A DNA stretch of 64,000 nucleotides. Origin: Spirochaetia bacterium (GTDB lineage Bacteria > Spirochaetota > Spirochaetia > SZUA-6 > Bin103). The stretch spans positions 253,207 through 317,206 of the forward strand of contig OZ242313.1 in the NCBI GenBank assembly GCA_965208065.1, read 5' to 3'. The position numbers and the translations under genes are program-made. The notes under the pieces are model-generated. The model was not told the origin of the DNA, made no database searches, and saw only the letters and a program-made list of their open reading frames with translations. Position 1 is the stretch's first letter. Each line of letters begins with the position of its first letter. Of the stretch, positions 23,795 to 59,842 are shown piece by piece.

Positions 23795-24313
23795 ATGACC
23801 TTTGCACTCCTGGGTGGCCTCATCATAGCCATCTACGTTCTGTACCGCACCTTTCGCAAGAAACCGGAGCCGCCTCCCGCTCCGGCCGCAGACCCGAATG
23901 CGGATGCGGGCACGGCAACCGCGGGCGAGCCGGCGGCGGACGCTGCCGCCGCGCAGGCCGCAGAAATTGCCGGCGAGGACCCCGATTCCACCGTCACACC
24001 GTTCGTCACGGCCGAATCGGTGCCCGAGGAGCCGAACGTGAACAAGTCGGAGCTGGTCGAGATGATCGACTCGCTCATTGAGCAGTACGACGAAGAGATT
24101 CGCGAGATGACGCCGGCACAGGTCAAGAAGAAGAAGTCGTCGTGGGAACAGATCGAGAACCTGCAGCGGATCACCCAGATCGATTTCGCGGAAGAGGTGA
24201 TCGAACGATTCTGGGGCTACCCGAAGGGCTCCACCCCGGAGATCTCCAACGTCAAGAAATTGTCGCTCGGGCGCGGCGTTTGGTATACTACACGCCTGCC
24301 GGAGAACGAGTAG
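23795..24313 (+). CDS. Hypothetical membrane-anchored protein
   Basis: N-terminal TM helix, Pro/Ala linker, globular C-terminus; GC3-biased codon usage. Confidence 0.7.
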   Translation: MTFALLGGLIIAIYVLYRTFRKKPEPPPAPAADPNADAGTATAGEPAADAAAAQAAEIAGEDPDSTVTPFVTAESVPEEPNVNKSELVEMIDSLIEQYDEEIREMTPAQVKKKKSSWEQIENLQRITQIDFAEEVIERFWGYPKGSTPEISNVKKLSLGRGVWYTTRLPENE

Positions 24314-24378
24314 CGGTATTCCGCCCCGTCAGCGGGTAGTCCGGTCAGCAGACAACGACGGCCACAAGAGGCAGCAGC

Positions 24379-24630
24379 GTGCAGCAACAGATTCATCCCA
24401 AGTACAACTTCGTGGTGTTCAAGGACACCTCGTCCGACTTCGCGTTCCTGAGCCGGTCCACCCAGACGTCGCGAGACAAGATCACCTGGGAGGACGGCAA
24501 GGAGTACCCGTTGATCAACATCGAGATATCGAGCGCTTCGCATCCGTTCTATACCGGCAAGCAGACGCTGATCGACAGCGCCGGCCGCATCGAGAAGTTC
24601 CGCCGCCGCTACGGTCTGCGCAGTTCCTGA
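24379..24630 (+). CDS. rpmE2: 50S ribosomal protein L31 type B (zinc-independent)
   Basis: [34 protein letters not shown]; no CxxC. Confidence 0.95.
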
Positions 24631-24778
24631 CGCACCTGAGACCTCCCTTTCGCTCACCTGCAGCGGTTTCGCAGCCGAACATTGAGGTAACTCGATCGCG
24701 CTGGGGGGGCTCGTGCGCACTGTCACCGATCCGTTCAAGAATGCCAGTTCAACAGCCGTTATCGGCCTTGGCCGCACG

Positions 24779-24823
24779 GTGCCGGCCACCGACGTGCCGG
24801 CCACCGGCGTGCCGGCTACCCAT
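24779..24823 (+). repeat. Three imperfect 15-bp tandem repeats upstream of or within the murA 5' region
   Basis: gtgccggccaccgac/gtgccggccaccggc/gtgccggctacccat. Confidence 0.6.
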
Positions 24824-24838
24824 GGGCCGGGCGACCTG

Positions 24839-26218
24839 ATGCCTGACGCCATCGCGCCGGCGGCCGACCCGTCGACCACCGCCGAACGTGCCTACCGCGT
24901 CAGCGGCGGACAGCCGTTGTGCGGCGAGATTACCGTCGCCGGAGCCAAGAACGCGGCACCGAAGATGATAATCGCCGCGCTGCTCGCCCCGGAGCCGAGC
25001 GTGCTGGAGAACGTGCCGCGGATCGGCGAGGTCGAACTGACCCTGCGCATCTGCGACGCTCTCGGGGTGCGCTGGCGATGGCTCGACGAATCGAGCCTGG
25101 AGATCGATCCTTCCACCGTGACCGGCTGGCGGATCCCGGCGGACGTGAGTCCCGAACACCGCTCCTGCATGCTGTTCGTCGCGGCGTTGCTGCACCGCGC
25201 CGGGCGCGCGCAGATCGCCGCCATCGGCGGCGACGCCATCGGCGCCCGCCCAATCGACTTTCACCTGCAGGCGCTGCGCCAGCTCGGCGTCGACATCGAG
25301 CGCGACGGCGCTATTACCCGATTTCGCGGCGAGGTGCTGCGCGGGGCCGAGATCCGGCTCGCCTACCCAAGCGTCGGCGCCACCGAACAGGTTCTGGTCG
25401 CCGCTGCCGGGGCGATGGGACGCACGGTGCTGCGCAACGCCGCCATAGAACCGGAGATCGACAGCCTGGTCGGCCTGTTGCGCGCCATGGGGGCGCGCAT
25501 CGAACGCCCAAGCGGGCGCACCTGGGTGATCGACGGGGTGGCGTCCCTGCACGGCGCCCGCCATTGGGTGATCGGCGATCGCCTGGAAGCCGCCTCCTAC
25601 GCGGCGGCAGCGGTCGCCACCCACGGCGACCTGTTCGTGCGCGGCGCCGAACCCGAGCACCTGCAATCCTTTCTGGCCGTGTTGCGCAGCGCCGGAGGAA
25701 TCTGCGAAGAGGATACCGCGGGCATCCGGTTCCGCGCTTCCGACCGGCTCCTCCCGGCAACGCTGGAGACCGCGCCCCATCCCGGATTCATGACCGACTG
25801 GCAGCCGCCGCTGGTGGTCCTGCTCACGCAGGCGGACGGCGTGTCCATTGTGCACGAAACGGTGTACGAGCGGCGGCTCGGGTATGCCCGCGCCCTCGGT
25901 GAAATGGGCGCCTCGGTAGACCTGCGCACCGAGTGCCTGGGCAGCGCCGCGTGCCGGTTCCGCGGCCGCGGCTGCAACCACAGCGCGGTAATTTCGGGTC
26001 CCACGCCGCTGGTTGCGGGCGAACTGGAAGTGCCCGACCTGCGCGCCGGGTTCGCCTACCTGTTGGCCGCCCTGGTGGCCGACGGCGAGAGTACGCTCAC
26101 CCAGGTCGGCAACATCGAACGCGGCTACCAGGAGGTGCTCGTCAAGATCCGAACGCTCGGCGGGCAGATCGAGGAACGGGTACTGGAAGCGCCGGTCGCG
26201 CAGCAAGCCTCCGCATAG
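24839..26218 (+). CDS. murA: UDP-N-acetylglucosamine 1-carboxyvinyltransferase (Cys-to-Asp type)
   Basis: GAKNAA, GGDAIGARPIDFH, SVGATE, PGFMTDWQ, PDLRAG; start uncertain (24713-24839). Confidence 0.92.
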   Translation: MPDAIAPAADPSTTAERAYRVSGGQPLCGEITVAGAKNAAPKMIIAALLAPEPSVLENVPRIGEVELTLRICDALGVRWRWLDESSLEIDPSTVTGWRIPADVSPEHRSCMLFVAALLHRAGRAQIAAIGGDAIGARPIDFHLQALRQLGVDIERDGAITRFRGEVLRGAEIRLAYPSVGATEQVLVAAAGAMGRTVLRNAAIEPEIDSLVGLLRAMGARIERPSGRTWVIDGVASLHGARHWVIGDRLEAASYAAAAVATHGDLFVRGAEPEHLQSFLAVLRSAGGICEEDTAGIRFRASDRLLPATLETAPHPGFMTDWQPPLVVLLTQADGVSIVHETVYERRLGYARALGEMGASVDLRTECLGSAACRFRGRGCNHSAVISGPTPLVAGELEVPDLRAGFAYLLAALVADGESTLTQVGNIERGYQEVLVKIRTLGGQIEERVLEAPVAQQASA

Positions 26219-26257
26219 GGTCGGAGCACCCGGAGCACCGGAAAGCAACGACACGCT

Positions 26258-27082
26258 GTGGAGAAACGCCGCACCGCCACCTGGCGAGTAAGACTTCGCA
26301 GCGTCATCTTTCTGTCCGACTCACGCGTCGGGAAGATCTTCGACATCGCCGTCATCGCCACCATCATCGCAAGCGTCGTGGTGGTGATGCTGGAGAGTTC
26401 CCACGCGGTGGACTCGATGCTCGGTCCGATATTGCGCGTGGCCGAGTGGTGCTTCACCATCGCGTTTCTGATCGAATACATCCTGCGTCTGCTGACGGTG
26501 CGGCGGCCGCTGCACTACGCACGCAGCTTCTTCGGGATCGTCGACCTGCTGGCGGTGCTGCCGGCGTTCGTCGCCCTGCTGCTACCCGGCACCCACTACC
26601 TGGCCGTGTTGCGCCTGTTGCGCGTGCTGCGCGTGTTTCGGGTACTGAAGCTGGTTCCCTACATGAAGGAAGGGGTGCTGATCCTGGAAGCGCTGCGCGC
26701 GAGCCGTCGCAAGATCACCGTGTTCCTGTTCGCGGTGCTGATCGTGGCGGTGATTCTCGGTTCGCTGATATACGTAATCGAGGGAGAGGAGAACGGCTTC
26801 ACCAGCATCCCGCGCAGCATGTACTGGACCGTCGTGACCCTCACCACGGTCGGCTATGGCGACTTGACCCCGCAAACCGGGCTCGGCCAAATGCTGGCCA
26901 TGGCGATCATGGTTATGGGCTACGGCATCATCGCGGTCCCTACCGGCCTGGTTACCGCCGAGGTGGTGTCGCAGTCGTTTCGCCTACGCGACCAGCGCCG
27001 ATGCCACGAGTGTGGCCGGACGGGCCACCAGCCCGATTCGGGGTTCTGCCGCCACTGCGGAAACAATTTGGACAGGGTGTAA
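26258..27082 (+). CDS. Voltage-gated potassium channel / ion transporter
   Basis: S4 LRLLRVLRVFRVLK, filter TTVGYGD, C-terminal CxxC..CxxC. Confidence 0.92.
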   Translation: MEKRRTATWRVRLRSVIFLSDSRVGKIFDIAVIATIIASVVVVMLESSHAVDSMLGPILRVAEWCFTIAFLIEYILRLLTVRRPLHYARSFFGIVDLLAVLPAFVALLLPGTHYLAVLRLLRVLRVFRVLKLVPYMKEGVLILEALRASRRKITVFLFAVLIVAVILGSLIYVIEGEENGFTSIPRSMYWTVVTLTTVGYGDLTPQTGLGQMLAMAIMVMGYGIIAVPTGLVTAEVVSQSFRLRDQRRCHECGRTGHQPDSGFCRHCGNNLDRV

Positions 27083-27103
27083 ACCTTCTGGTGTCGCAAC
27101 CTG

Positions 27104-27132
27104 CTGACGCGCGACGCGCTATCCTGTATAGT
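27104..27132 (+). promoter_or_regulatory. Sigma70-like promoter for the histone gene
   Basis: CTGACG-17 bp-TATAGT; AGGAGG RBS at 27184-27189. Confidence 0.55.
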
Positions 27133-27197
27133 GCCGCCGGTGGTCGCGACATGCACGCGTACCGAAACACTACACTTTGGAACAGGAGGCCTGATTA

Positions 27198-27380
27198 ATG
27201 GCTGACATTTTGATCGTTACCTCCAAGGTCAAGAACTACATCAAGGAAAAGGGCGACATGAATACTGCCGCCTCGGTCGCCGAAGCACTGTCGGACAAAG
27301 TACGTGCAGTGTGCGACGAAGCGATGGAAAACGCACGGGTTGCCAAGCGCAAGACCGTGCGCGGCACCGACATCACCTGA
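27198..27380 (+). CDS. Bacterial histone (Bd0055-like histone-fold singlet)
   Basis: MADILIVTSKVKNYIKEKGDMNTAASVAEALSDKVRAVCDEAMENARVAKRKTVRGTDIT closely resembles B. bacteriovorus Bd0055 (recalled) and has the RKTV...D motif; strong RBS. Confidence 0.88.
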   Translation: MADILIVTSKVKNYIKEKGDMNTAASVAEALSDKVRAVCDEAMENARVAKRKTVRGTDIT

Positions 27381-27404
27381 ACACGCACACCGGAAGCAGA
27401 TCCT

Positions 27405-28790
27405 TCACGCTGCCGGGAAACGGTCCGCCTCCACGGCGGGCATAAGCTCTTCCCGGACCTCGGCCGCCACCGACAGAGAGCCGGTGGCGAGCACGAGTCC
27501 GTTCGTGCCTGCGTCGGCCATGAGTTGGCGCAGCGTACCTCCCACCGAAAGCGAACTTGCGCGAGCAGGAATACCGGCGGCCCGCAGGGCTGCGGTGAGT
27601 TCCGCGGCGGCCAGGGCGCGCGGGTGGCGTGACTGCACGGCGACCACGGACTCCGTGAGCGCGCGCAGGCGGCGGAACGTGGGTTCTGTCTGGTGGCCGC
27701 TTTGGCAACCTACCAGGGCGGTCACCTGCCGGCCGCGGTTGCCTATACGCAGTCGGCGCAGTTCGGCGAGCAGACAATCCATGGCGCGTGCGCAATGGGC
27801 TCCGTCGACCAGCACCGGCACCGGGTTGCGGCATACCAGTTCAAGCCGCCCGGGCCAGGCGACGCTGCCCAGCCCGCGGCAGATGGCGTCGGCGGTGAGC
27901 GGGGCACCCAGGTCGATCAGCCGCTCGGCCGCCGTGATGGCGACGGCGGCGTTCTCGCGCTGCATCAGGCCGCGCAACGGCAGGGCTGCCCGGTATTCAC
28001 CGTGCCGGCCACGCCACAGCAGCTCCTGATGGGAGTCCTCCAGCGCGGGGGCGCGGGGCGGAGCGGGCGGCCGGGCAACCGTCTCGATGCGTGAACCGGC
28101 GGCGGTTGCCTCGCGTGCCAGCACGGCATGCACGGCGGGCCGTTGCGGGCCCGTGACCACCGGGACGCCGGGCTTGATGATGCCCGCCTTGGCGTAGGCA
28201 ATGGCGCGCAGGGTGGTACCGAGGGCGGGAACGTGATCGCGACTGATATTGGTGATGACCGAGAGCGCCGGTTGTACGACATTGGTGGTGTCATGGCGTC
28301 CGCCCACGAACGCCTCCACCACCTGGTACGCGGCGCCCGCTTCGCGGAAGCAATGCAACGCCATGGCGGTGAGCATTTCCAGCGTAGTCACGGCGCCGCG
28401 CTCGCCGGGCAGCGCCGGGTCGCGCGCGACCGCCTGCGCGGCCTCCCACACGTGCGCGAACAGGCCGGCGAACTGGTCGCGGGTGACCGGCGCAAGCCCG
28501 AGGCGGATCCGTTCCACGACAGAATGCAGGTGCGGAGAGGTGAACAGGCCGACGCGCAGCCCCGCGGCGTGCAGAATGGCCGCGATCATGGCGGCGGTGG
28601 AGCCCTTGCCGTTGGTGCCGGCGACATGGATCGTGGGGACGGTCAGGTGAGGGTCGTGCAGCCGGCGCAGCAGCGCCCGCATGCGTTGCGCGCGGTAGTG
28701 GTGGCGCTCGCCGGGGGGCGCGGTACGGCGCAGGTCGGTAAGGCTCATCAGCCGTTCCACTGCCGCCTCGAACGTGCCCGTTTCCGCCAT
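27405..28790 (-). CDS. folC: Folylpolyglutamate synthase/dihydrofolate synthase
   Basis: HVAGTNGKGST, FTSPHL, D.TNVV, KAGIIK, WPGRLE, DGAH. Confidence 0.9.
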   Translation of the reverse strand: MAETGTFEAAVERLMSLTDLRRTAPPGERHHYRAQRMRALLRRLHDPHLTVPTIHVAGTNGKGSTAAMIAAILHAAGLRVGLFTSPHLHSVVERIRLGLAPVTRDQFAGLFAHVWEAAQAVARDPALPGERGAVTTLEMLTAMALHCFREAGAAYQVVEAFVGGRHDTTNVVQPALSVITNISRDHVPALGTTLRAIAYAKAGIIKPGVPVVTGPQRPAVHAVLAREATAAGSRIETVARPPAPPRAPALEDSHQELLWRGRHGEYRAALPLRGLMQRENAAVAITAAERLIDLGAPLTADAICRGLGSVAWPGRLELVCRNPVPVLVDGAHCARAMDCLLAELRRLRIGNRGRQVTALVGCQSGHQTEPTFRRLRALTESVVAVQSRHPRALAAAELTAALRAAGIPARASSLSVGGTLRQLMADAGTNGLVLATGSLSVAAEVREELMPAVEADRFPAA

Positions 28791-28852
28791 GGCAGGATCG
28801 TAGACGCGCGCCGAATCCGCTGTAAAGGCGGCGGTACGGCGGACGGCGGCGC

Positions 28853-29623
28853 GTGCTGATGCCGGTGGCCAAGGACCGGTCCTGGCTGCAGCGCACCAGC
28901 TACCCCGGGCGCGGGCTGGCGGTGGGCCGTACCGCGGACGGCGCTTCCGGCGTGCAACTCTACTGGACCATGGGGCGCAGCACCGGCAGCCGCAACCGGC
29001 GGCTGGTGCACGAACCGGACGGCAGCGTGCGGGTGGTGGTGGCCGACGCCGCGACCGGCGTGCAGCGCGGCGACCCGAGCCTGCTTCTGTACCGGGCGCT
29101 GTGTGCCGTTCGGCACGGCGACGGGCGCGTAACCCACGTGGTAGGCAACGGCGACCAGACCGATACCATCGCCGCCGGTGTGAGTGGCGGCGAGTCGTTC
29201 ATGGCCGCGTTCTCGCGCCGCGACGTGGAGCCGGATCCCCCGCACTACACGGCGCGCATCGCCGGTGCGCTGACCGTGGGCGGCGCTGTTGGCGGACCGG
29301 GCGAGCTGGCAATTGTGAAGACGACCGGGGGCGAGCCGCCGGGCAGCAGCCACCAGCACTTCTGCTACCACCGCATGCGGCCCGGCTGGGGATACTGCAT
29401 CACCACCTACGAAGGGGACGGCTCGCCGCTGCCGCCGTTCACCGGCGAGCCGTTCCCGCTGCCGGTGGCCGATGAGCCGCGCCGCGCCGTGACCGAGCTG
29501 TGGGAGCTGCTCGACCGCGACAACCGGGTGGCCGCGGCGGCCAAGTTCATCGGCCTGGACGGCGGCGCGGTGCGCATCGAGCTGATCAACCGCAACCCCG
29601 GCGGCGGGGAGACTGGCCCATGA
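28853..29623 (+). CDS. Stand-alone IMP cyclohydrolase-like protein (PurO-like)
   Basis: YPGRG, Y..MGRS..SRNR, NGDQTD, EPDPPHYTARI, TTY..DG.PLP.F.GEP. Confidence 0.8.
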   Translation: MLMPVAKDRSWLQRTSYPGRGLAVGRTADGASGVQLYWTMGRSTGSRNRRLVHEPDGSVRVVVADAATGVQRGDPSLLLYRALCAVRHGDGRVTHVVGNGDQTDTIAAGVSGGESFMAAFSRRDVEPDPPHYTARIAGALTVGGAVGGPGELAIVKTTGGEPPGSSHQHFCYHRMRPGWGYCITTYEGDGSPLPPFTGEPFPLPVADEPRRAVTELWELLDRDNRVAAAAKFIGLDGGAVRIELINRNPGGGETGP

Positions 29624-30333
29624 CCGGCACGCCGGCCCGCTGTCCCTGGTGCGCGGGCGATGCGCTGATGCAGGCGTATCATGACCACGAGTGGGGCACA
29701 CCGGTGTGGGACGACGACCGCCGCCAGTTCGAGTTCCTGATCCTGGAAGGGGCGCAGGCGGGCCTGAGCTGGCGCACCATCCTGCACAAGCGGGCCGGCT
29801 ACCGGCGCGCCTACCGCGACTTCGCGGCTGCCGGCGTGGCGCGCTTCGGCGCCGCCGAGCGGGATGCCCTGCTGCGCAACCCGGAGATCGTCCGCAACCG
29901 GCTCAAGATCGATGCGTCGATTGCCAATGCGCGCGCCTTCCTGGCCGTGCAGGAGCAGTTCGGCAGCTTTTGCGCCTACCTGTGGCGCTTCGTCGATGGG
30001 GTGCCGGTGGTGGGCGGCTGGCGCGGCGACGGCGAGGTTCCGGCGCAGACCGGGTTGTCGCGAACGGTAAGCCGGGATCTCAAGGCGCGCGGGTTTCGCT
30101 TCGTCGGCCCGATAATCGTATACTCGCACCTGCAAGCGGTGGGCCTGGTGAACGACCATCTGCGCGACTGCTTCCGCTTTGCCCAACTTACCGCAGCCGC
30201 CGGGCACCGCCCGGTACCGCTCTCCAGCGCACCGGCCGGCACCTCCCCATCGACCGTCAGTCCCCGTGCCGACCCGCGCGCCGACGCGCCCGGCTTCGGT
30301 GCGCAAATCTCAACCAACAAGAGGAATACATGA
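29620..30333 (+). CDS. tag: DNA-3-methyladenine glycosylase I
   Basis: RC.W, YHDHEWG, LEGAQAGLSW, IVRNRLKI, GLVNDH. Confidence 0.92.
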   Translation: MTGTPARCPWCAGDALMQAYHDHEWGTPVWDDDRRQFEFLILEGAQAGLSWRTILHKRAGYRRAYRDFAAAGVARFGAAERDALLRNPEIVRNRLKIDASIANARAFLAVQEQFGSFCAYLWRFVDGVPVVGGWRGDGEVPAQTGLSRTVSRDLKARGFRFVGPIIVYSHLQAVGLVNDHLRDCFRFAQLTAAAGHRPVPLSSAPAGTSPSTVSPRADPRADAPGFGAQISTNKRNT

Positions 30334-31160
30334 GTACCAATACCACTGAACGGCGTCTGGCCGTCCTGATAGATGGCGACAACGCCCAGGCATCGCAAAT
30401 CGAACACGTCATGAAGGAAATCGTGAAATTCGGCGTGGTTACCATCCGCCGCATCTACGGCGACTGGACCACCACGCAGCTCGATTCCTGGAAGAAGAAG
30501 CTGCCGGTGCACGCCATCCAGCCGGTGCAGCAGTTCAGCAACACGGTGGGCAAGAACGCCACCGACTCGGCGATGATCATCGACGCGATGGACATTCTGT
30601 ACAGCGACCACGTCGGCGGGTTCGTGATCGTGTCGAGCGACAGCGACTACACGAAGCTGGCGATCCGGCTGCGCGAGGCGGGGATGGAGGTGATCGGCAT
30701 CGGCAAGCACCACACGCCGAAGCCGTTCGTGAACGCCTGCAACGAGTTCCGTTACGTCGAGAACATCATGAAGAGCTACGAGGGCGACAATCGCCGCCGC
30801 CGCTCGCGCCGCCGAGACGGACGCAGCGGAGACGGCGCCGGCGCAGCCGATGGTGCAGGAAGTGCCGATGGTTCCGGCTACACGGCAGGCAGCGACGCGG
30901 CGGCAGCGAGCGACAGCAACGGGTTCGAGGATGCCGACCTGGTCTCGATCGTCACCGAGGCGCACGAGATGGTGGACCAGGAGTCTGCATGGGTGGACCT
31001 GCGCAAGATCGCCAACAACCTCAAGAAGCTCGATCCGGCGTTCGACCCGCGCACCTACGGCTCCTCCAAGCTGGTCAAGATCATCGCCTCCCGGCAGGAC
31101 GCCTTCGAGGTGAAGCGCGACCGCATTCGCCACCGCATCATGGTGCGCATCAAGGACTGA
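30330..31160 (+). CDS. NYN domain protein with OST-HTH/LOTUS domain
   Basis: LIDGDN, GKNATD, VSSDSDY, FDPRTYG..KL. Confidence 0.88.
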   Translation: MSTNTTERRLAVLIDGDNAQASQIEHVMKEIVKFGVVTIRRIYGDWTTTQLDSWKKKLPVHAIQPVQQFSNTVGKNATDSAMIIDAMDILYSDHVGGFVIVSSDSDYTKLAIRLREAGMEVIGIGKHHTPKPFVNACNEFRYVENIMKSYEGDNRRRRSRRRDGRSGDGAGAADGAGSADGSGYTAGSDAAAASDSNGFEDADLVSIVTEAHEMVDQESAWVDLRKIANNLKKLDPAFDPRTYGSSKLVKIIASRQDAFEVKRDRIRHRIMVRIKD

Positions 31161-49033: not shown

Positions 49034-49447
49034 CTACAACTGCGTGGCAAGGCGCGTGCGGACGGTGTCGATCTGGTTCAGGAGCCGGTCTGCTCGCTGC
49101 ACGGAATCTTCCGCCTCCGACCGCGAGGTGGACTCGAAGTCGCCGTAGTCCACGTCGGTACGCCGGGTCATCAGCGTTTTGAAATCCTTGGCAACGCTGA
49201 CCGGCAACAGCTTGGTCCTGATGAACCGCAGGCTGAGGATAGTCACCGCGCCGCCGTGTGATTCCGGATTTACGCCGTCGAGAATGAGCAGCGCGCGTAC
49301 CGCACTCAGGGCGGCGTAGTAGCTGCGGTTCACCGCGTTATTCAACCGCTCGTCGGCCAAGGTTGCCCGTGCATCGGCGAGAGCCTCGCGCGCCTTGGCG
49401 AAGCGGATATCGCTGAGCGTCTTCTTGTCGTCGACGTTCAGCGTCAT
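49034..49447 (-). CDS. HEPN domain protein (UPF0332-like)
   Basis: AVNRSYYA, SHGG, RTDVDY (R-x4-Y). Confidence 0.85.
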   Translation of the reverse strand: MTLNVDDKKTLSDIRFAKAREALADARATLADERLNNAVNRSYYAALSAVRALLILDGVNPESHGGAVTILSLRFIRTKLLPVSVAKDFKTLMTRRTDVDYGDFESTSRSEAEDSVQRADRLLNQIDTVRTRLATQL

Positions 49448-49782
49448 ACCGGGATGGCCTCCCGCGCCACGTTCTCGTAAAAGGGTGAGTGGTACCGGCG
49501 TTCGAGCGCGAAGCTGGCAGAATCCTTGATCACCGGATCGAATGGGATGCCAGTGCGCAATTCCTCCTCGACGCAACTGTCGATGACGGCGCGTTCTACC
49601 TCCGGGGTACGTCCCGTGACGACCACAAGCAAGTCGAGGTCCGACTCACCCCCGTGATCGCCTCGCACGCGCGACCCGAAGGCGTAGATGGCCTCCAGCC
49701 GGACGTCTCCCTGGCTGTTCTCCAGACGTGTTCTAATCGCTGTGGCGACTCGCGCCAATGCCTGTCGTGTGGGCGTATACAC
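49444..49782 (-). CDS. Minimal nucleotidyltransferase (MNT)
   Basis: FGSRVRGD...SDLDLLVV; overlaps the HEPN start. Confidence 0.85.
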   Translation of the reverse strand: MYTPTRQALARVATAIRTRLENSQGDVRLEAIYAFGSRVRGDHGGESDLDLLVVVTGRTPEVERAVIDSCVEEELRTGIPFDPVIKDSASFALERRYHSPFYENVAREAIPV

Positions 49783-49812: not shown

Positions 49813-49988
49813 CTCGGCGAGCGCTTCCAGGGAACGGTGATCGTCATCGCCCACTGCGTCAGTACCATCGCCGACCTGCCGCGCATCCTGGTGCTCGACG
49901 GGGCCGCATCGCAGCGGACGGCACCCACGCCGACCTGCTGCGCACCAGCACCAGGTACCGCAACCTGTACTCCCCACCACCCGAGTAG
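49813..49988 (+). repeat. Diverged copy 2 of the 3' end of ABC gene 47282-49012
   Basis: GERFQGTVIVIAHCVSTIADLPRILVLDG..(frameshift)..DGTHADLLRTSTRYRNLYSPPPE*, homologous to ~48836-49012. Confidence 0.88.
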
Positions 49989-50113
49989 CCCGCTGGCGAC
50001 TGGCTCGCGCCGCTGGCGCCCCGGCGGCTGGACATCGGAGCCAGCGTGAACCACCATTGCAGCAGCCCGCTGGGCTTCCCGGTCGCCAAGCACAACACCA
50101 TCGGAGGAATGCG

Positions 50114-52494: not shown

Positions 52495-52635
52495 GAGCGA
52501 CGAGCGCCGCCGGGGGGGACGGTGATTGTCATCGCGCATTGCGTCAGCACGATCGTCGATCTGCCACGCATCTTGGTCCTCGACGGCGGGCCGATCACCG
52601 CGGACGGCCGGCTCGCCCCTCTGCGGCGCACCAGA
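52495..52635 (+). repeat. Diverged copy 3 of the 3' end of ABC gene 47282-49012
   Basis: DER..GTVIVIAHCVSTIVDLPRILVLDGGPITADGRLAPLRRT. Confidence 0.85.
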
Positions 52636-52721
52636 TCTCAAGGAGACGGCCCCGCCAGCGGCAAGTGGTGGCCCAAGTAGCGCCAGGTGAGGTCAGATTC
52701 GAGTTTGTCGTATATTGGCGC

Positions 52722-53547
52722 ATGCGAGGGGCCACTCGGCAGGACGCGGCAGCGCTGCGTTTCGAAGCGGATCTGGACCTGGACGGCCGCTACGCGTGCG
52801 AAACGGTGGAGGCGAGCGCGGACGAGGTGCGCGTCCTGGACGGTGCGGGGCGCGCGCGGGTCACCTTGCCGCGCGGCCGCGTGGCCGGCCTCGATGTGGA
52901 GTCCTACGTGTCGAGCGGCGCGCTGTATGCGCGGGTGGACGGTGCGCCGTGCGAGCTGGTGCGCTTCACCAACGGGCGGATACCGGCGGCCGCCGCGTTC
53001 GTCCGGGCAATGCGCGACGGCGCGGCGACGGCGGAGGCACCCGCGCAACGCGCGGAGCAGGGCACCGGAGATACGGGGCACGCCTTTACGCGGTGGGCGG
53101 TATTCAGGCGTACGATGCGGTTCGCGCCGAGGCAGCCGGCGAAGCTGGCGTTGGTGGTGGCGGCGCTCTTGCTGCACACCGGGGCCAACGTTGCGGCACC
53201 ATATCTCGCCGGGACCGTGTTCTTCGACCGCGTTCTCACGCCAGCCGACACACTGTTCGGCCAGGTGGGACTGCTGGTGGCGATGATCGCCCTGGTGCGG
53301 CTCGCCGAGTTGGTGTTCCGTGTCGTGTGGGGCTGGATCTGGGGCCTGTACCATCATCGCATCGGCCTGAACCTGCGCTCGGCCGTGTTCGCCGGGGTCC
53401 ACCGCCTGTCGCTCGGCTTCTTTTCCAACAACCTCACCGGCTCGCTGCTCACGCGCATGAACAGCGACATGAACGGAGTGGGCTCGCTGCTCGGTACCAT
53501 CGCGCCGAATGGCTTCGTGCAAGCGGTCATGATGGTGGGCAGCATCG
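52722..53547 (+). pseudogene. ABC exporter with N-terminal extension, truncated in the TMD
   Basis: DLDLDGRY..ESYVSSG..LVRFTN extension, TMD motif TGSLLTRMNSD, no NBD; sequence switches to foreign fragments at ~53547. Confidence 0.75.
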
Positions 53548-53698
53548 AGCGGCACGCGCCAAGCGTCCCGTTCGGCGGACGTCAAGGTGCGGTCCTGCAG
53601 CGCCTCCAGCGCCAGCTGCTCGGCGCGGTCCCAGTCGAGTGTGTTCGTGGCGACGTGGAAGTCCAACTCGCGTTGCCAGCGTTCTACTTGGTCATGCT

Positions 53699-53900
53699 TC
53701 ACTCGCATCCCTCCAGCACGGCCTCGAGGGCGTCGACCTCGCGCCGGTCGATCGTCAGGCCGTACTCCTGGCGGACCGCGATCACCGTGCGGGCAAACCG
53801 GCAGCGGTTGAGATCCGGCAGCCAGTCGGCCGCGTCCTTCGCGACCTTCTCGTGGCGGTTCAACGCCGGCGTTGCGAGCGTCAGGTTGTCGAGGTCGCTG
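53699..53900 (-). pseudogene. C-terminal fragment of a DUF1524/GmrSD-like HNH nuclease
   Basis: DLDNLTLA.PALNRHEK.AKDAADWLP..NRC.F...V..VR..YGLTID..E..AL..VL.GC. Confidence 0.65.
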
Positions 53901-53996
53901 ACGCAACGCTTCCGCACCGCCAGGCTAGCCCGCGCAGAGTCCGCTGTCGTGCGCTTCCGACCGCGCGACTATGTGTTCGATGTCCGATTCCTTGAG

Positions 53997-54024
53997 GCTC
54001 AGTTGCTCAGTTGCTCAGTTGCTC
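53997..54024 (+). repeat. 8-bp tandem repeat, 3.5 copies
   Basis: (GCTCAGTT)3 GCTC. Confidence 0.7.
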
Positions 54025-54128
54025 GACAATCAGGAGCTCGAGATCCTGCGCGTAGTCGAAGTGACAAGTAATCGCTACTCAACGTCCGAATCGTCGCTCC
54101 TCCGGTACCAGGTGGCCTAGCCGTGAGA

Positions 54129-54866
54129 CTATCGGAGCGAAATAACCTCGCCGTGCCAACATCCGGTGCATCGGCGCGCCACCAACAGGGACTCCCCGTT
54201 GGAATCCACTTGAGCAATGAGATCCCCTTGTTCGTCCCAAATCGCACTCCTTCCGGCAGATTCCCGCCCGCCGCTTTGCCCAGCATAGTTCGACGTCAAG
54301 ACAGCCATTCGATGAGAGGTCGCGTATCGCTTCATCCTGTATGCATGATTCGCCATCTCATCTTCTGTTTTCATTATGGACGCAACGTATAGCTGAGCGC
54401 CGCGCGTGGCCACGGCGGCGACGTGAGAGGGGTAGCTCGTATCTGCGCATATCGCTAGGCCCACACCAACTCTGCGAACTGAAACTACACAACTGTTTTC
54501 GCCAGAGATGAAATACGGAGATTCGCTCGCAGGGATATGTACTTTCGCGTAACAGACAGTTCGTTGGGGTGAAACTATCAGTGAGCCGAGATACGGCCTC
54601 TCTTCCTCCGATGTTAGAGGTCCACCGACAACTACATGCATTTGATGTTTTTTTGCCGCTCTTCGTATCGGCTCTAGACGAGTGTCGTCTCTCTTCAACT
54701 GTATCGAGGCAGCAAGATCCAACTCGTATCCGATAAGAGACAATTCAGGGAACACGAGCAGACTGCAACCAGCAGAAGCGGCTCTTTTGATGAACCGCAA
54801 ATGAGCAATGGTGTTTTCCTGCAAGTCGCCCCTCACAGCCGATGATTGTGCGGCGCCGATGATCAT
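54129..54866 (-). CDS. Carbon-nitrogen hydrolase family protein (lower GC, likely foreign)
   Basis: VFPELSL.GY, YAKVH, LAICAD (E-K-C triad), G.SAIW. Confidence 0.87.
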   Translation of the reverse strand: MIIGAAQSSAVRGDLQENTIAHLRFIKRAASAGCSLLVFPELSLIGYELDLAASIQLKRDDTRLEPIRRAAKKHQMHVVVGGPLTSEEERPYLGSLIVSPQRTVCYAKVHIPASESPYFISGENSCVVSVRRVGVGLAICADTSYPSHVAAVATRGAQLYVASIMKTEDEMANHAYRMKRYATSHRMAVLTSNYAGQSGGRESAGRSAIWDEQGDLIAQVDSNGESLLVARRCTGCWHGEVISLR

Positions 54867-55810
54867 GTTGTTCTGTTGTTCTCTATGGATCCCACGAAGG
54901 TAGTAACATTCCGCGTCAATCTCATGGTGGACGACGGACTTAGAAACTGTCAAGCCGACCTCTATCCGCCCCAACCCACCTTTCACGAGCCGGGCCGCCG
55001 CCCGGGCGTAATCAACCGTCGGCGCCTCCTCCGCGGTCGCACCGCCTCCGGGTGGACGCAGCCGCTTCGCGGGCGCTGCTGGGAGATCCTGGACTGCTGG
55101 TGCTGGATGAGCCGGGGAATCACCTGGACTACGCCGGTCTGGAGTGGCTGGAGGAGATGCTCGCCGGCTTGCCGGGCGGCGTACTGCTGGTCTCCCACAA
55201 CCGGCGCCTGCTAGACCGGACGGTTACCAGCATCCTGGAACTGACCGGAGGCCGTATCCGTGAATACCGCGGCAACTACACCGACTACCGGCTCGCCCGA
55301 CTGCAGTCACTGGTCGCCCGCCTGGCGGCGGTCGCTGCCGTGCGTTCCGATAAGGCGCACGGCAAGCGGCTGCGGGCGCGGCGCACGCAGCTCGCCCGCG
55401 AAGAGAGGCAGGCCGTGGCACGGCCCGATCTCCGGGAGGAGCGGGTGTCGGTGGTGTTGCCGCCGGCTCGCAGCGAGGCGAACGTGGCGTTGCAGGTGAT
55501 TGGCTATGAGCGGGGTTTCGGTGGACGGGTCCTGTTCCGGGACGCGCGCCTGGAGATCTCCTGCGGGGAGCGGGTCGCGCTGGTGGGGCCCAACGGCTGC
55601 GGCAAGAGCACGCTGCTGCGCGACATCGTGACCCACGGCGCGTGGGAGCACCCGGTGCTGCGCGTGGGGCCGAGCCTGACCGTCGGCTACTGCGCTCAGA
55701 ACCAGGACGCGTTCGCCGCGGATCAGACTATCCTGGATGCGTTCGTCGACTTGGGGCTGGGCAACCGACGGGAGGTCCTGGGTGCCCTGCGGTGGTACCT
55801 GTTCACGTGG

Positions 55811-57208
55811 GGGATATGATCAGAAGTTGTGGATGAGATAAAATGAGCGTACCCCCTGAAATACAGATTCGACCCCCGAATCAAGAGGAGTACGCTCGTG
55901 GAGAATATTACGCTCAGGGACATCGAGGCACAAGGGCCTGGATCGGTACTGGAAGAACTAGCACGCCGGGGAGCGCAGCAGATGCTGGCCCAGGCGATGG
56001 AAGCTGAGGTGGCGTTGTTCATCGAGAAGCACGCCGACAAGGTGGACGGAAACGGCCACCGGACGGTGGTGCGGAACGGGCACATGCGAAAGCGGGAGTT
56101 GGTGACCGGGATAGGCCGGGTGCCGATCAAGCAACCGCGGGTGGATGATCGCCAACTCGCCAAGCAAGGGGAAGAGAGGTTCAGCAGCGCGATCCTGCCG
56201 CGCTACCTGAAGCGAGTGGCGAGCGTGGACAGCCTGATTCCGGCGCTGTACCTGAAGGGAGTGTCGACGGGGGACTTCTCGGAGGCGCTGAAGGCGATCC
56301 TGGGGGAAGGAGCGCCTGGGCTGAGTGCGAACAGTGTGGTGCGGCTGAAGGCGGTGTGGGAGCAGGAGTATAGGCAGTGGACGCGGCGCGACCTGAGCGG
56401 CAAGCGGTACGTGTATATGTGGGCCGACGGGCTGCATGTGAACGTGCGGCTGGATGAGGAGCGCAGTTGCATCCTGGTGATCATGGGGGCGGACGAGTAC
56501 GGCAACAAGGAACTGGTGGCGGTCAGCGACGGCTATCGGGAGAGCGCGGCGTCGTGGCGAGAGATACTGCTGGGTGTGCGGCGGCGCGGGCTGGTGATCG
56601 GGCCGCGGCTGGCAACGGCCGACGGCGCGCTGGGGTTCTGGAAGGCGTTGCGGGAAGTGTATCCGGGTACGGGCGAGCAGACCTGTTGGTTCCACAAGGC
56701 AGGCAACGTATTGGACAAGATGCCGAAGTCGGTGCAGAGCAAAGGCAAGGCGATGGTCCGCGAGATGTGGCAGGCGCCGTCGCTGGAGAAGGCCAAGGCA
56801 GCCTACGACCAGTTCTGCGAGGCATGGGCGGACAAGTATCCGAAGGCGGTCGAATGCCTGCGCAGGGATGAGCAGTCGTTGTTCAGCTTCTACGCGTTTC
56901 CGGCGGCCCACTGGGTGCATCTGAGGACCAGCAACCCGATCGAGTCGACGTACGCGACGGTGCGCTTGCGGACCAGGCGGACGAAGGGCTGCGGATCGCG
57001 GACGGCGACCCTGACGATGGTGTGGAAGCTGGCGTTGGAGGCGGAGAAGACCTGGCGCCGACTGATGGGCTTCAAACTGATCCCGCTGGTGATGGAGGGG
57101 CGGGAATTCGTCGACGGAGAGCTGACGGAGGCAGCTGCTTAGGCAACCGGATCAGGGGATGACGGCGCTCGCGATTCGACCCTCATCCACAACACTTGAC
57201 AATATCCC
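55811..57208 (+). mobile_element. IS256-family insertion sequence with 9-bp target duplication
   Basis: IRL GGGATATGATCAGAAGTTGTGGATGAG, IRR (rc) GGGATATTGTCAAGTGTTGTGGATGAG; TSD TTCACGTGG at 55802-55810 and 57209-57217. Confidence 0.93.
55898..57142 (+). CDS. IS256 family transposase
   Basis: RNGH, LYLKGVST, YMWADG, ADGALGFW, Q.CWFHK, RTSNPIES. Confidence 0.95.
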   Translation: MENITLRDIEAQGPGSVLEELARRGAQQMLAQAMEAEVALFIEKHADKVDGNGHRTVVRNGHMRKRELVTGIGRVPIKQPRVDDRQLAKQGEERFSSAILPRYLKRVASVDSLIPALYLKGVSTGDFSEALKAILGEGAPGLSANSVVRLKAVWEQEYRQWTRRDLSGKRYVYMWADGLHVNVRLDEERSCILVIMGADEYGNKELVAVSDGYRESAASWREILLGVRRRGLVIGPRLATADGALGFWKALREVYPGTGEQTCWFHKAGNVLDKMPKSVQSKGKAMVREMWQAPSLEKAKAAYDQFCEAWADKYPKAVECLRRDEQSLFSFYAFPAAHWVHLRTSNPIESTYATVRLRTRRTKGCGSRTATLTMVWKLALEAEKTWRRLMGFKLIPLVMEGREFVDGELTEAAA

Positions 57209-57316
57209 TTCACGTGGGACGACCTGGACAAGCAGATCGGCGTGCTGTCGGGCGGCGAACGCAACCGCCTGCAGATTGCAGCGGCGGTGCAGCGCCGGGC
57301 CAACTTCCTGATCCTC

Positions 57317-57535
57317 GGGCGCGCGCTTGTTGCGATCCTCACAAACCGTTTTGGGTACCACGCTGTCCATTAGCGCGGCAGTCACATCGTGCTGGAGACC
57401 TTGGAGCCTTCAAGACACCGGGTCGTGGTCCCTGACCATCCCGCAATTCGCATCGGAACCCTCAACTCGATGCTGCGAGCAGTAGCAGCCCACAAAGGGA
57501 TCGACCGCGGAGAAATCCTCGGACAGGGGCGGTGA
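57317..57535 (+). pseudogene. HicA-family toxin remnant with an internal stop
   Basis: GRALVAILTNRFGYHAVH*RGSHIVLET...VVVPDHPAIRIGTLNSMLRAVA; TAG at 57371. Confidence 0.75.
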
Positions 57536-57834
57536 GTCTGAGACGCTGCGCATGATGAGCGCGTGAACGTGCGACTCGACCCGGTTCGTGGAGTACGTTC
57601 GCACCATTTCCTCCGCGCTCCACGTCGCCTTGTCCAGCACCCACACGGAGCTGCCTCGGTCGCGCCAGGTCGGCTTGTGCTTGTCGCTATCCGCGCCGGG
57701 CCACTTGCAAGCTGTCGGCGAGCGCAGTCGAGTGGCGCGCCGGCAGCGCGGAGGAGGCGCAAAATGGGGGGCTGCGGCGGAGCGGCCGGTCCGTAGCCGT
57801 GGCGCATTCTGTGATGAGCAAAGCAGCGGAGCCA

Positions 57835-57854
57835 TAATGCGGTGCACCGCATTA
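57835..57854. repeat. Perfect 20-bp palindrome built from the RIT terminal core
   Basis: TAATGCGGTGCACCGCATTA, 6 bp outside the RIT end. Confidence 0.9.
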
Positions 57855-57941
57855 GCCTTATAATGCGGAGTCCGGGGTAATGCGGAGTGACATGACTGAA
57901 ATCCTTGCGGGAAGGGCTGTTGAGGCGTGGATCGCTGCGCA

Positions 57942-58934
57942 TTATCCCGGGGCCAGAAGCGAGGAGATCAGTTCGTCGGGAGCCTTGAATCGCCCGCGGC
58001 GGAGTTGCGGCGGGAGCACGGCTTCGACGGCCTCCAGCTTGTCAGTGGGATCGACGCGCAGGTAGACCTCGGTGGTGCGCACGTCGGCGTGCCCCAGCCA
58101 CAGCGCCACCTTGCGGATGTCTCCGGTAGCCTGCAGCATGGTGAGGGCGCAGCTGTGGCGGAGTTGGTGAGGTGAGATCGAACGTCCCGCCAGCGAAGGA
58201 CAGGCGGTCGCGGCGGTCCGCACATGCTTGTCCAGGATGTACTCGAATCCGGCGCGGCTCATCGGCCTGTCGGTGGCGTTCAGGAACACCTCCCGCGCCG
58301 GGTTCTCGCCGCGGACAGCGAGCCAAGCCCGGAGGTCAGCGACGGTTTGTTTCCACAGCGGGAGACAGCGTTCACGGCGGCCCTTGCCATGGACGCGGAG
58401 ACTCGCGGTTCCGCGCAGCGACAGATCTGGCAGCTGCGCCGTCACCAGTTCGGACACGCGCAGAGCAGCAGCGAAGCAGAGATGGAGCATGGCGCGGTCG
58501 CGGACGCCGAACCGAGTGGTGATATCCGGAGCGTCCAGAATCGCGTTGACCTCGTCCATAGTCAGGTGGCGGACGAGCGGATGATCATGGCGCTTGGAGG
58601 GGATGGCGCGGATCTGTCTGGCTTGTTCCAACGCAGCCGGATGACGGAATTCGACGTAGCGCATGAAGGCTTTCACGGCCGCCAGTCGGACGTTGCGGCT
58701 GGCCGGGCTGCCGCCACGATCGACCTCGAAGTGGGTAAGGAACGCGACGATGAGCGGGGCATCGAGATGTTCAAGATGAAGCGCCGACGGTGTGATGCCG
58801 AGGCGTCCGGCGGCGAAAGTGAACAACAAACGGAAGGCATAGGCGTAGCTCTCGCAGGTATGCGGGCTGAAGCCGCGCTCCACGGGAAGGTAGTCACGCA
58901 GGAAGTGGGTAATCAGTGGTGCGATGGGAGTCAT
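57942..58934 (-). CDS. Tyrosine recombinase (RitC)
   Basis: LRVSE, GKG, PHQLRHS, LGH, TEVY. Confidence 0.92.
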   Translation of the reverse strand: MTPIAPLITHFLRDYLPVERGFSPHTCESYAYAFRLLFTFAAGRLGITPSALHLEHLDAPLIVAFLTHFEVDRGGSPASRNVRLAAVKAFMRYVEFRHPAALEQARQIRAIPSKRHDHPLVRHLTMDEVNAILDAPDITTRFGVRDRAMLHLCFAAALRVSELVTAQLPDLSLRGTASLRVHGKGRRERCLPLWKQTVADLRAWLAVRGENPAREVFLNATDRPMSRAGFEYILDKHVRTAATACPSLAGRSISPHQLRHSCALTMLQATGDIRKVALWLGHADVRTTEVYLRVDPTDKLEAVEAVLPPQLRRGRFKAPDELISSLLAPG

Positions 58935-59842
58935 GCCAACCTCCCGGAAACGAAGTTCTCGCCGGTCGTGGCGATGTCGGCCATCAATTCGGGAGTCGCC
59001 TCCAGATACCAGTAGGTGTGGACGACGTTGGTGTGCCCGAGATAGGTGGAGAGCGCGACCAGGTGACGCGCCACTGATTCGCGCCGCACCGCACAGCGTT
59101 GCAGGGATCTGGTGGCAAAAGTGTGGCGCAGATCCACCATCCGCGGACGGCGCTGGCGGCCAACAGCGATGCCGGCAAGCCTGACCACCCGCTGGAAGGT
59201 GCCACTGGCCGTAGGTGTCGGGATGCGCCGGTGGTGAGCCGACACGAACAGGTGGTCGTCGGCGATGGCGACGCTCTGCCGCTCGTGCAGGTACTCAGTC
59301 AACGCTTCGACCGTCGTCGGATGCAACGGCACCAGGCGGCTCTTGGCGAACTTGGTTCGGCGGATGCACAGGACAGAGTTGGGAAGCAGGTCGTCGAAAC
59401 GCAGGTCGAGCGCCTCCGAGACGCGCAGGCCGGTGGCGGCGATGAGTCCGATCAGGGTCGCATAGACGGACCGACGCAGCGCGTAGGAGCACGGCAGACG
59501 GCGCGCCGCCGCCAGTAGTTGCCCGATCTCGGTCGGCGTATAGATGTAGGGCGGCTGGCGGACCACGCGGACATGGAAGTGGCGAGCTGGGGGGATCTCG
59601 TGGGTGGCGTCCTCGGCGAACAGGAAGCGGGCCAGCACGACGACATCGTGAAGTCGAACCGCGCGCGCGTGCGGTGTAGACGCCTGCGCCGCCCACTGCA
59701 CGGCGGTGGCGGCGCGGATGTGGGTGTCGCCCTTGTCGCCGGCGAAGGCTGCGAATGCTTGCAGATTGCGGCCGGTGTCGTGGAGCTTGTAGCCGAGGGT
59801 TCGCCGCAGTGCGAGATAGCGGTCTACGTGGTCACTCAGCAT
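58931..59842 (-). CDS. Tyrosine recombinase (RitB)
   Basis: TGLRVSEA, TKF.KSR, DLRHTFA, YLGH..TYWYL. Confidence 0.9.
   Translation of the reverse strand: MLSDHVDRYLALRRTLGYKLHDTGRNLQAFAAFAGDKGDTHIRAATAVQWAAQASTPHARAVRLHDVVVLARFLFAEDATHEIPPARHFHVRVVRQPPYIYTPTEIGQLLAAARRLPCSYALRRSVYATLIGLIAATGLRVSEALDLRFDDLLPNSVLCIRRTKFAKSRLVPLHPTTVEALTEYLHERQSVAIADDHLFVSAHHRRIPTPTASGTFQRVVRLAGIAVGRQRRPRMVDLRHTFATRSLQRCAVRRESVARHLVALSTYLGHTNVVHTYWYLEATPELMADIATTGENFVSGRLA

Follow-up and report, generated by a model that had tools for sequence, protein, structure and literature searches.

The 64,000-nt stretch analysed here (hereafter the window; all coordinates and strands are positions within it) comes from the genome of an uncultured member of the Spirochaetia. 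At 27198–27380 (+) it carries a gene that almost certainly encodes a histone-fold protein of the type known from Bdellovibrio bacteriovorus as HBb or Bd0055. The open reading frame (ORF) specifies 60 residues, beginning with MADILIVTSKVK; because an in-frame TGA lies at 27192–27194, two codons upstream, the ATG at 27198 is the only possible start. The ratio of nonsynonymous to synonymous substitutions (dN/dS), calculated against six orthologs from the same genus, is 0.04–0.16, indicating purifying selection.

Homology, fold and class

A phmmer search of the PDB gives HBb/Bd0055 as the best match (8fvx, 8cmp; E 2.1e-12, 49.6 bits). Residues 1–59 align with residues 1–59 of HBb without a gap, 29 of the 59 being identical by hand count, and HBb residue numbering equals that of the window protein. 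Because the alignment is gap-free, the helix lengths should be those of HBb. HLp of Leptospira perolatii (9qt0; E 7e-9, 38.7 bits) and the archaeal histone HTkC (9f2c; E 3e-3) follow, and NF-YB and HMfB match at E 0.05–0.3. The Pfam profile PF00808 (CBFD_NFYB_HMF) is passed narrowly, with 22.7 bits at a gathering threshold of 21.4, and the search of the whole genome also exceeds this threshold (21.8 bits).

An AlphaFold2 (AF2) model built from 87 aligned relatives has a mean predicted local distance difference test (pLDDT) score of 85.9 and displays three helices, including a long central α2, joined by two loops, which is the histone fold of α3-truncated histones. Foldseek returned seven PDB matches at E <= 0.001, all of them bacterial histones: five rows of HBb, with template modelling (TM) scores of up to 0.92, and two rows of HLp (TM 0.83); HMfB reaches TM 0.75. 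Published α3-truncated histones have an α3 of 3–4 residues and a shortened α2, compared with roughly 10 residues of α3 in nucleosomal histones (Schwab et al. 2024, PMC11390915). In the model α3 comprises four residues (56–59), and the protein ends at residue 60; the histone fold and the one-turn α3 therefore place it in the α3-truncated family. The RKTxxxD motif is present as R51-K52-T53-V54-R55-G56-T57-D58, with R51, K52 and T53 invariant and D58 nearly invariant among the 87 relatives. An initial annotation, made from the letters of the window alone, had named the closeness to Bd0055, the R-D clamp, the short α3 and the RKTV pattern, and had proposed to look for a histone fold in a predicted structure; all of these points are borne out.

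Complex prediction with four copies scored 0.90, against 0.02 for the best of three controls. In calibration, 20 of 30 proteins solved as one-chain pairs attained this mark, as did 1 of 23 single-chain structures; the calibration ran two copies and other alignments, so these counts apply to the four-copy prediction only roughly. Three runs share at least 83% of the contacts, with partner pLDDT of at least 88, and the confidently predicted contacts are of the handshake kind within one pair of copies (residue 35 with 35, and 53–54 with 21–24). The remaining residues are uncertain, so that the four-copy prediction speaks neither for nor against a tetramer. The high score may stem from the memory that the model has of solved HBb dimers; it indicates likeness to HBb rather than binding.

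Two classes of bacterial α3 histones are in print, the "bacterial dimers" represented by HBb and the face-to-face (FtF) tetramers represented by HLp. As reported for HLp, one chain supplies R49, S52 and N53 to the FtF tetramer and its partner supplies R55, T61 and F63, residues on which the assembly depends; judged from the residues named, the numbers in the HLp PDB entry are higher by 2 than those in print. The phmmer alignment sets N45, V48, A49, R51, T57 and I59 of the window protein at these positions. Because N45, V48 and A49 replace R49, S52 and N53, the α2 side of the FtF interface is absent, and of the conserved tetramer residues R49, N53 and R55 only the last is kept, as window R51. 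The FtF R/N pair (R48 and N52 of the FtF logo) is described as missing from bacterial dimers (Schwab et al. 2024, PMC11390915). Among 110 distinct sequences, R45 together with N49 occurs in 3/3 Leptospira-like rows, and neither residue occurs in any of the 11 genus rows. The lysines K11, K13 and K17 of the bacterial dimer logo probably correspond to window K10, K12 and K16, of which the first two are invariant, position 16 being K or R in 109 of the 110 rows. We file the window protein with the bacterial dimers because it lacks the FtF R/N pair, scores higher against HBb than against HLp and has the class lysines. The class itself is defined by CLANS clustering and not by structure (Schwab et al. 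2024, PMC11390915), and the assignment uses PDB match scores and the tree as a proxy for that clustering, so membership is best worded as probable.

Hu et al. 2024 report N22, R57, S9, T53, T8, S24, K10, K12, K52 and K16 as the ten residues of HBb that contact DNA most, and describe the DNA-contact residues as conserved in Spirochaetota relatives. Eight of the ten are identical in the window protein, R57 being replaced by T and S24 by A, and S9, K10, K12, R51, K52 and T53 are invariant in the 87 aligned relatives. Likeness to HBb (PDB 8FVX, 8CMP, 9EZZ, 9F0E) further includes the length of about 60 residues with no extra domain, the TSKVK start of α1, K12, K16, N22-T23, C39, the RKTV loop, the clamp, the one-turn α3, the absence of the FtF R/N pair and the co-existence with HU. 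The two proteins differ at HBb R57, S24, D49 and M55, which are T, A, A and R in the window protein. B. bacteriovorus also has a second histone, Bd3044, whereas the window genome has one histone-fold gene over the Pfam cut-off, and the window host is an uncultured Spirochaetia metagenome-assembled genome (MAG) and not a predator, its histone being known from sequence alone.

HLp (PDB 9QT0-2) and the Leptospira interrogans histone come from the same phylum and share the α3-truncated fold and the V-R-x-T-D end of loop L2 and α3. They differ from the window protein at the HLp positions R49, S52, N53 and F63 given above, and K52, N22 and C39 of the window protein stand where Leptospira-like rows have S, M and I. 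The SMC-MAP synteny reported for hlp was not seen among the examined window neighbours. Archaeal HMfB (PDB 1A7W) and NF-YB/CBF proteins have in common with the window protein the histone fold, the RKT loop, the RD clamp and the PF00808 match, but their sequence and structural matches are weak.

The V-R-x-T-D end sets the genus apart from the other non-Leptospira rows. R55 and T57 occur in 11/11 genus rows and 3/3 Leptospira-like rows of the 110 sequences; none of the other 96 rows has R at position 55 (M, K, L or Q instead), and at position 57 R or K stands in 94 of them and T in one. In HLp, R59 (window R55) is reported to add more than any other residue to the DNA-binding energy and K54 (window K50) to make persistent contacts, and T61 (window T57) and R55 (window R51) lie on one side of the tetramer interface. 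Judged from the alignment, the genus appears to unite a dimer-class body with the L2-α3 end of the tetramer class, and the state shared with Leptospira may be either ancestral or convergent.

Distribution and co-existence with HU

The nearest loci, with 73–95% protein identity and a common gene order, lie in MAGs labelled Spirochaetia, Spirochaetales or Spirochaetaceae bacterium. The host genome (5.04 Mb, single contig, 97.9% complete) has a G+C content of 67.1%, and the initial suggestion of a high-GC, probably spirochaete source agrees with both observations. The order common to the genus is L31, murA-like, channel, histone and folC-like gene; within it the histone is 73–95% identical, as compared with 59–85% for the channel and 44–83% for the folC-like protein. 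The folC-like gene is adjacent to the histone gene at 10/10 genus loci and the channel gene at 9/10, and at the 82 loci examined outside the genus none of the window neighbours was found. Synteny across relatives, one of the checks that had been proposed, is thus conserved within the genus only. All 10 checked orthologs from the family and order are stand-alone singlets.

The own genome has a single histone copy, which is its sole PF00808 match above the cut-off. A histone was found in 10/10 other genomes of the genus and 13/13 genomes of the sister genus, that is, in 23/23 other family genomes sampled, and in 5/17 genomes from other families of the order. When the phylum was sampled evenly, 64/301 genomes matched. 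One family accounts for 42 of these (42/45 of its genomes); its scores are weaker (52–60 bits) and it has KRTESNKR, the sequence found in HLp. Evidently, this family is the Leptospira-like FtF group. Most of the other matches are strong (70–107 bits), one genome (G109) giving 37 bits. In the same class, many families yielded no histone match among the genomes searched. A search of a 185,579-species collection with two peptide patterns gave 537 loci confirmed by tblastn, with labels including Myxococcota, Gammaproteobacteria, Planctomycetota, Bdellovibrionota, Opitutales and Chlamydiota, and 488 cluster representatives (50% identity) match at E <= 0.001. Phage and plasmid collections gave no histone match by tblastn.

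The tree comprises 110 distinct rows and 58 columns, after removal of duplicates, rows shorter than 50 aa and loci L103 and L108, and is rooted at the midpoint; its 80 collection loci were the best matches to a spirochaete query, so the sample is biased. The genus forms its own clade (83/94) among the non-FtF rows, and the Leptospira-like rows lie outside on a branch of length 0.65. The deepest split has a support of 14/85 and the deep forks are unresolved. With such a deepest split and a midpoint root only, the tree identifies neither a donor nor a direction of transfer.

Histones of the sister genus (L016–L021) are 49–55% identical to the window histone, as against 60–65% for those from other families of the order (L012–L015). 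They form a separate clade (100/100) that is not sister to the window genus and have other gene neighbourhoods, a difference that reflects either fast divergence or replacement of one of the two. Many of the best cluster representatives (P0055–P0068 and others) are 126–149 aa long with two matched stretches, that is, tandem doublets of the bacterial-dimer histone fold, e.g. P0055 and P0056; P0059 (274 aa) carries two histone folds behind a Cys-rich N-terminal part. DNA nearly identical to 26258–28790 (0.68–0.93 of sampled words) occurs in 14 sequencing runs (X1–X14) from 11 studies. The label "sponge metagenome" is attached to six of these runs (X3–X6, X9, X13), which come from six studies; the host organism may be sponge-associated, and one of the 14 runs may stem from the source sample.

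The own genome also has one HU gene (PF00216, 90.1 bits), and HU was found in 22/23 other family genomes, the miss being a genome (G004) that is 76% complete. The HLp paper states that HU and a histone co-exist in B. bacteriovorus, whereas HLp-bearing Leptospira species are without HU, the histone being reported as its replacement. Because an HU gene is present, the window histone supplements HU, as in Bdellovibrio, instead of taking its place as reported for Leptospira. "Histone-based chromatin", the phrase of the initial annotation, is overstated in view of these HU genes.

Within the family there is one HU-family match per genome, except for two in G002 and none in G004, and 2–3 such matches occur in several families of the order that yielded no histone. 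Among the relatives G024–G040 no clean inverse relation between histone and HU count was seen; G039, for example, has a histone and four HU-family matches.

Putative promoter, expression signals and gene neighbourhood

Features around the histone gene are collected in Table 1. The ORF, its AGGAGG site and the CTGACG-17-TATAGT arrangement had been described correctly, and the latter is the sole σ70-like site in 26900–27600, matching 9/12 positions (mean of 0.1 sites in 50 shuffles). In an alignment of the upstream spacer from 10 genus members, TGACGCG...GTATAGTGCCGCC is retained in 9/10 (G002 is the exception), and the rest of the spacer has diverged. The -10 hexamer reads TATAGT in 8/10 rows, TATGGT in G010 and TATAAT in G002; from its position a transcript start near 27139 would be predicted. 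GGAG before the start is invariant in 10/10 genus members, and GGAGG-type sites precede 10/10 checked family and order orthologs.

Table 1. Coordinates of the histone gene, its putative expression signals and its adjacent genes within the window
Feature	Position	Strand	Description
Ion_trans channel gene, upstream neighbour	26258–27082	+	PF00520, 131 bits
-35-like hexamer CTGACG	27104–27109	+	Consensus scan; putative promoter element
-10-like hexamer TATAGT	27127–27132	+	17-nt spacer after CTGACG
Shine-Dalgarno AGGAGG	27184–27189	+	Read from the sequence; 8 nt ahead of ATG
Histone gene	27198–27380	+	Probable α3-truncated "bacterial dimer" (HBb/Bd0055) type; predicted helices 8–19, 25–48, 56–59; RD clamp R51–D58
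Mur-ligase-family gene of FolC size, convergent downstream neighbour	27405–28790	-	Mur_ligase_M and Mur_ligase_C matches

Contigs from RNA libraries (runs of three studies) cover the histone gene with 0–1 differing letters and lend weak support to its transcription. X19 contigs span 27140–27393, four of five with 0 differences and one with 3; their alignment start at 27140 is only compatible with the promoter, as contigs cannot reveal a transcript start. Contigs of X15 and X16 span 27224–27393, and the two tables are identical and possibly represent one data set. The common stop of X15, X16 and X19 at 27393 was considered as a transcript 3′ end and dropped: the X17 contig, spanning 27295–27496, has A>G at 27394 and runs on, and an interruption of the assembly graph would explain the stop equally well. 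No terminator-like site follows the histone gene on the + strand, the folding of 27370–27470 giving z -0.41. Contig cover across a 6.9-kb stretch is uneven, most neighbouring genes having no contig, and serves neither to rank genes nor to rule out DNA carry-over.

Codon adaptation was scored against 17 ribosomal-protein and elongation-factor genes, which themselves score 0.585–0.714, against a median of 0.671 for 3285 GC3-filtered ORFs. The index therefore holds no signal of expression in this genome and was rejected as a proxy. The value of 0.583 for the histone gene, at the 22nd percentile, or the 52nd against first-60-codon values, speaks neither for nor against high expression.

The initial annotation placed the histone gene alone between a channel gene and a convergent folC among housekeeping genes. 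The channel neighbour and the lone position hold; by its domains the downstream gene fits FolC, and may also be another Mur-type ligase. Other neighbours are L31, a MurA-like EPSP_synthase-family gene, an IMP-cyclohydrolase-like gene, a Tag glycosylase and an NYN/OST-HTH gene, and no Rfam family reaches its gathering score within 24000–31000. The histone gene has a G+C content of 55.6%. This low value suggested recent transfer, a reading rejected because the six scored genus orthologs have 56–62%, synteny is kept across the genus and the L31 gene region (24379–24630) is similarly low at about 58–59%.

Several further features of the window were recorded. The channel protein ends in C-x2-C-x13-C-x2-C, with weak zinc-ribbon matches (E about 0.01, below cut-offs); a zinc ribbon joined to a voltage-gated-type channel would be unusual, if true. 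The region 52539–60226 looks like a mobile-element patch. It has an uncalled gap between an ABC_membrane fragment (52539–54068) and a short ABC_tran fragment (55052–55816), and downstream a Mutator-family transposase (55898–57139, +) and two tyrosine recombinases (57945–58934 and 58934–60226, both -). A HEPN-domain protein (49037–49576, -; 59.7 bits) adjoins a small ORF (49862–50101, -) in an arrangement like that of HEPN/MNT-type pairs.

Proposed DNA-binding mode, alternatives and significance

We consider it fairly probable, bending included, that the gene encodes an α3-truncated bacterial-dimer histone that attaches to DNA and bends it, acting as a nucleoid-associated protein. The gene would be transcribed as a monocistronic unit from its own σ70-type promoter and translated from its strong ribosome-binding site. 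Two chains would most likely form a head-to-tail histone-fold dimer, in which α2 crosses α2 and L1 of one chain pairs with L2 of the other. By analogy with HBb, this dimer would grip the DNA backbone across minor grooves without sequence preference, through the start of α1 (T8-S9-K10, K12, K16), L1 (N22-T23) and L2 (K50, R51-K52-T53, R55). Binding would bend and hence compact DNA on the pattern reported for HBb, and the protein, presumably abundant like its Bdellovibrio counterpart, would act alongside the one HU of the genome and not as a substitute for it.

A number of observations weigh against this account. HBb R57 and S24 are replaced, as is D49, an extra clamp residue of HBb that is A49 here; the DNA contacts of L2 and α3 cannot equal those of HBb. 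R55 and T57 are states of the tetrameric HLp-like group, T57 matching an HLp interface residue, and a larger assembly is possible. Of the histone profiles searched, PF00808, which the initial annotation had suggested, matches only residues 26–59, and NCBIfam NF043032 (archaea_histone) is not passed (24.3 bits at a cut-off of 50). The HBb mode itself is disputed, with straight DNA encased by dimers in one report (Hocher et al. 2023) and bending in another (Hu et al. 2024). The RNA support consists of contigs, which carry no strand, ends or level, and DNA carry-over in RNA libraries can occur; codon adaptation did not point to high expression, the measure being uninformative in this host genome. 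The literature searched on bacterial and Spirochaetia histones holds no experimental work on the window protein or a Spirochaetia ortholog.

The dispute over HBb raises the idea that the same protein acts in another way, with edge-on dimers polymerising through one L1-L2 site into a sheath round straight, unbent DNA (a nucleohistone filament). This mode was seen in a Bd0055-DNA crystal (Hocher et al. 2023), and the L1-L2 motif used there (N22-T23, R51-K52-T53) is wholly retained in the window protein. We nevertheless regard it as unlikely: later work, including a second crystal form, solution data and simulations, is reported to favour bending by a single dimer (Hu et al. 2024; summarised by Schwab et al. 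2024, PMC11390915), and a filament demands about one dimer per 2.5 base pairs (Hocher et al. 2023), a very high dose of which there is no sign here. The distribution of R55 and T57 could instead mean that the genus histone assembles into tetramers, either at all times or just when on DNA, and wraps DNA in the manner of HLp, for which protected MNase fragments of 35–72 bp are reported, with V-R55-x-T57-D in the interface and the DNA path; window T57 and R51 match the HLp interface residues T61 and R55, and window R55 and K50 match the HLp DNA-contact residues R59 and K54. Such wrapping seems improbable, as the other side of the interface is missing (N45, V48 and A49 for HLp R49, S52 and N53, with I59 for F63), R49 and N53 being exactly the pair that bacterial dimers are said to lack (Schwab et al. 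2024, PMC11390915), and the match to HBb outscores that to HLp. It is also quite unlikely, in our estimate, that the genus histone is a structural intermediate of both α3 classes, with a dimer body, the L2-α3 end of Leptospira tetramers (R55, T57, K50), the main arginine DNA contact moved from α3 (HBb R57) to loop L2 (as in HLp R59) and possibly HLp-like assembly or stacking on DNA. If that were true, it would suggest that the split between dimers and FtF tetramers occurred within Spirochaetota.

Histone-fold proteins need not all organise genomes (Schwab et al. 2024, PMC11390915), and with HU present as a possible main nucleoid protein the window histone might be a low-abundance specific regulator or the partner of another protein. 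We would give this little credence: the protein lacks any extra domain, no partner gene is conserved beside it, synteny extends across the genus only, with unrelated housekeeping genes as neighbours, and the checked orthologs are all stand-alone singlets with strong ribosome-binding sites. The invariant residues are backbone contacts and not base-reading ones, and HBb and the L. interrogans histone are reported as highly abundant (Schwab et al. 2024, PMC11390915, among other sources). A chance open frame, suggested by a mere 60 codons in a 67% G+C genome rich in long spurious frames, has a negligible probability and is refuted for practical purposes by the dN/dS values, the 537 confirmed loci and 488 cluster representatives, the confident fold prediction and the conserved promoter and ribosome-binding site.

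Schwab et al. 2024 (PMC11390915) list class Spirochaetia of the Spirochaetota as one of the chief carriers of bacterial dimer histones, and 18,343 genomes were surveyed for histones by Hocher et al. 2023. Because presence in Spirochaetia is already in print, the window histone is not new at class level. The initial description of a lineage probably not studied is therefore overstated, as presence has been catalogued; it seems to hold for experimental work alone. Beyond these surveys no paper on a Spirochaetia histone was found in the literature searched; survey supplements, which lay outside that search, may include the lineage. According to the HLp paper, bacterial histones have been characterised experimentally in two organisms only, Bdellovibrio (HBb) and Leptospira (HLp).

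The window histone is a correctly identified further member of the described HBb class, sound but unsurprising, and the locus opens no new question. It adds a well-supported HBb-type histone, conserved across its family, from uncultured Spirochaetia. Its co-existence with HU contrasts with the HU-less Leptospira of the same phylum, and the genus-specific L2-α3 motif otherwise occurs, among the 110 sequences, in the Leptospira-like group only. As a soluble, easily expressed protein of 60 residues, it could serve to test which residues decide between dimer bending and tetramer wrapping.

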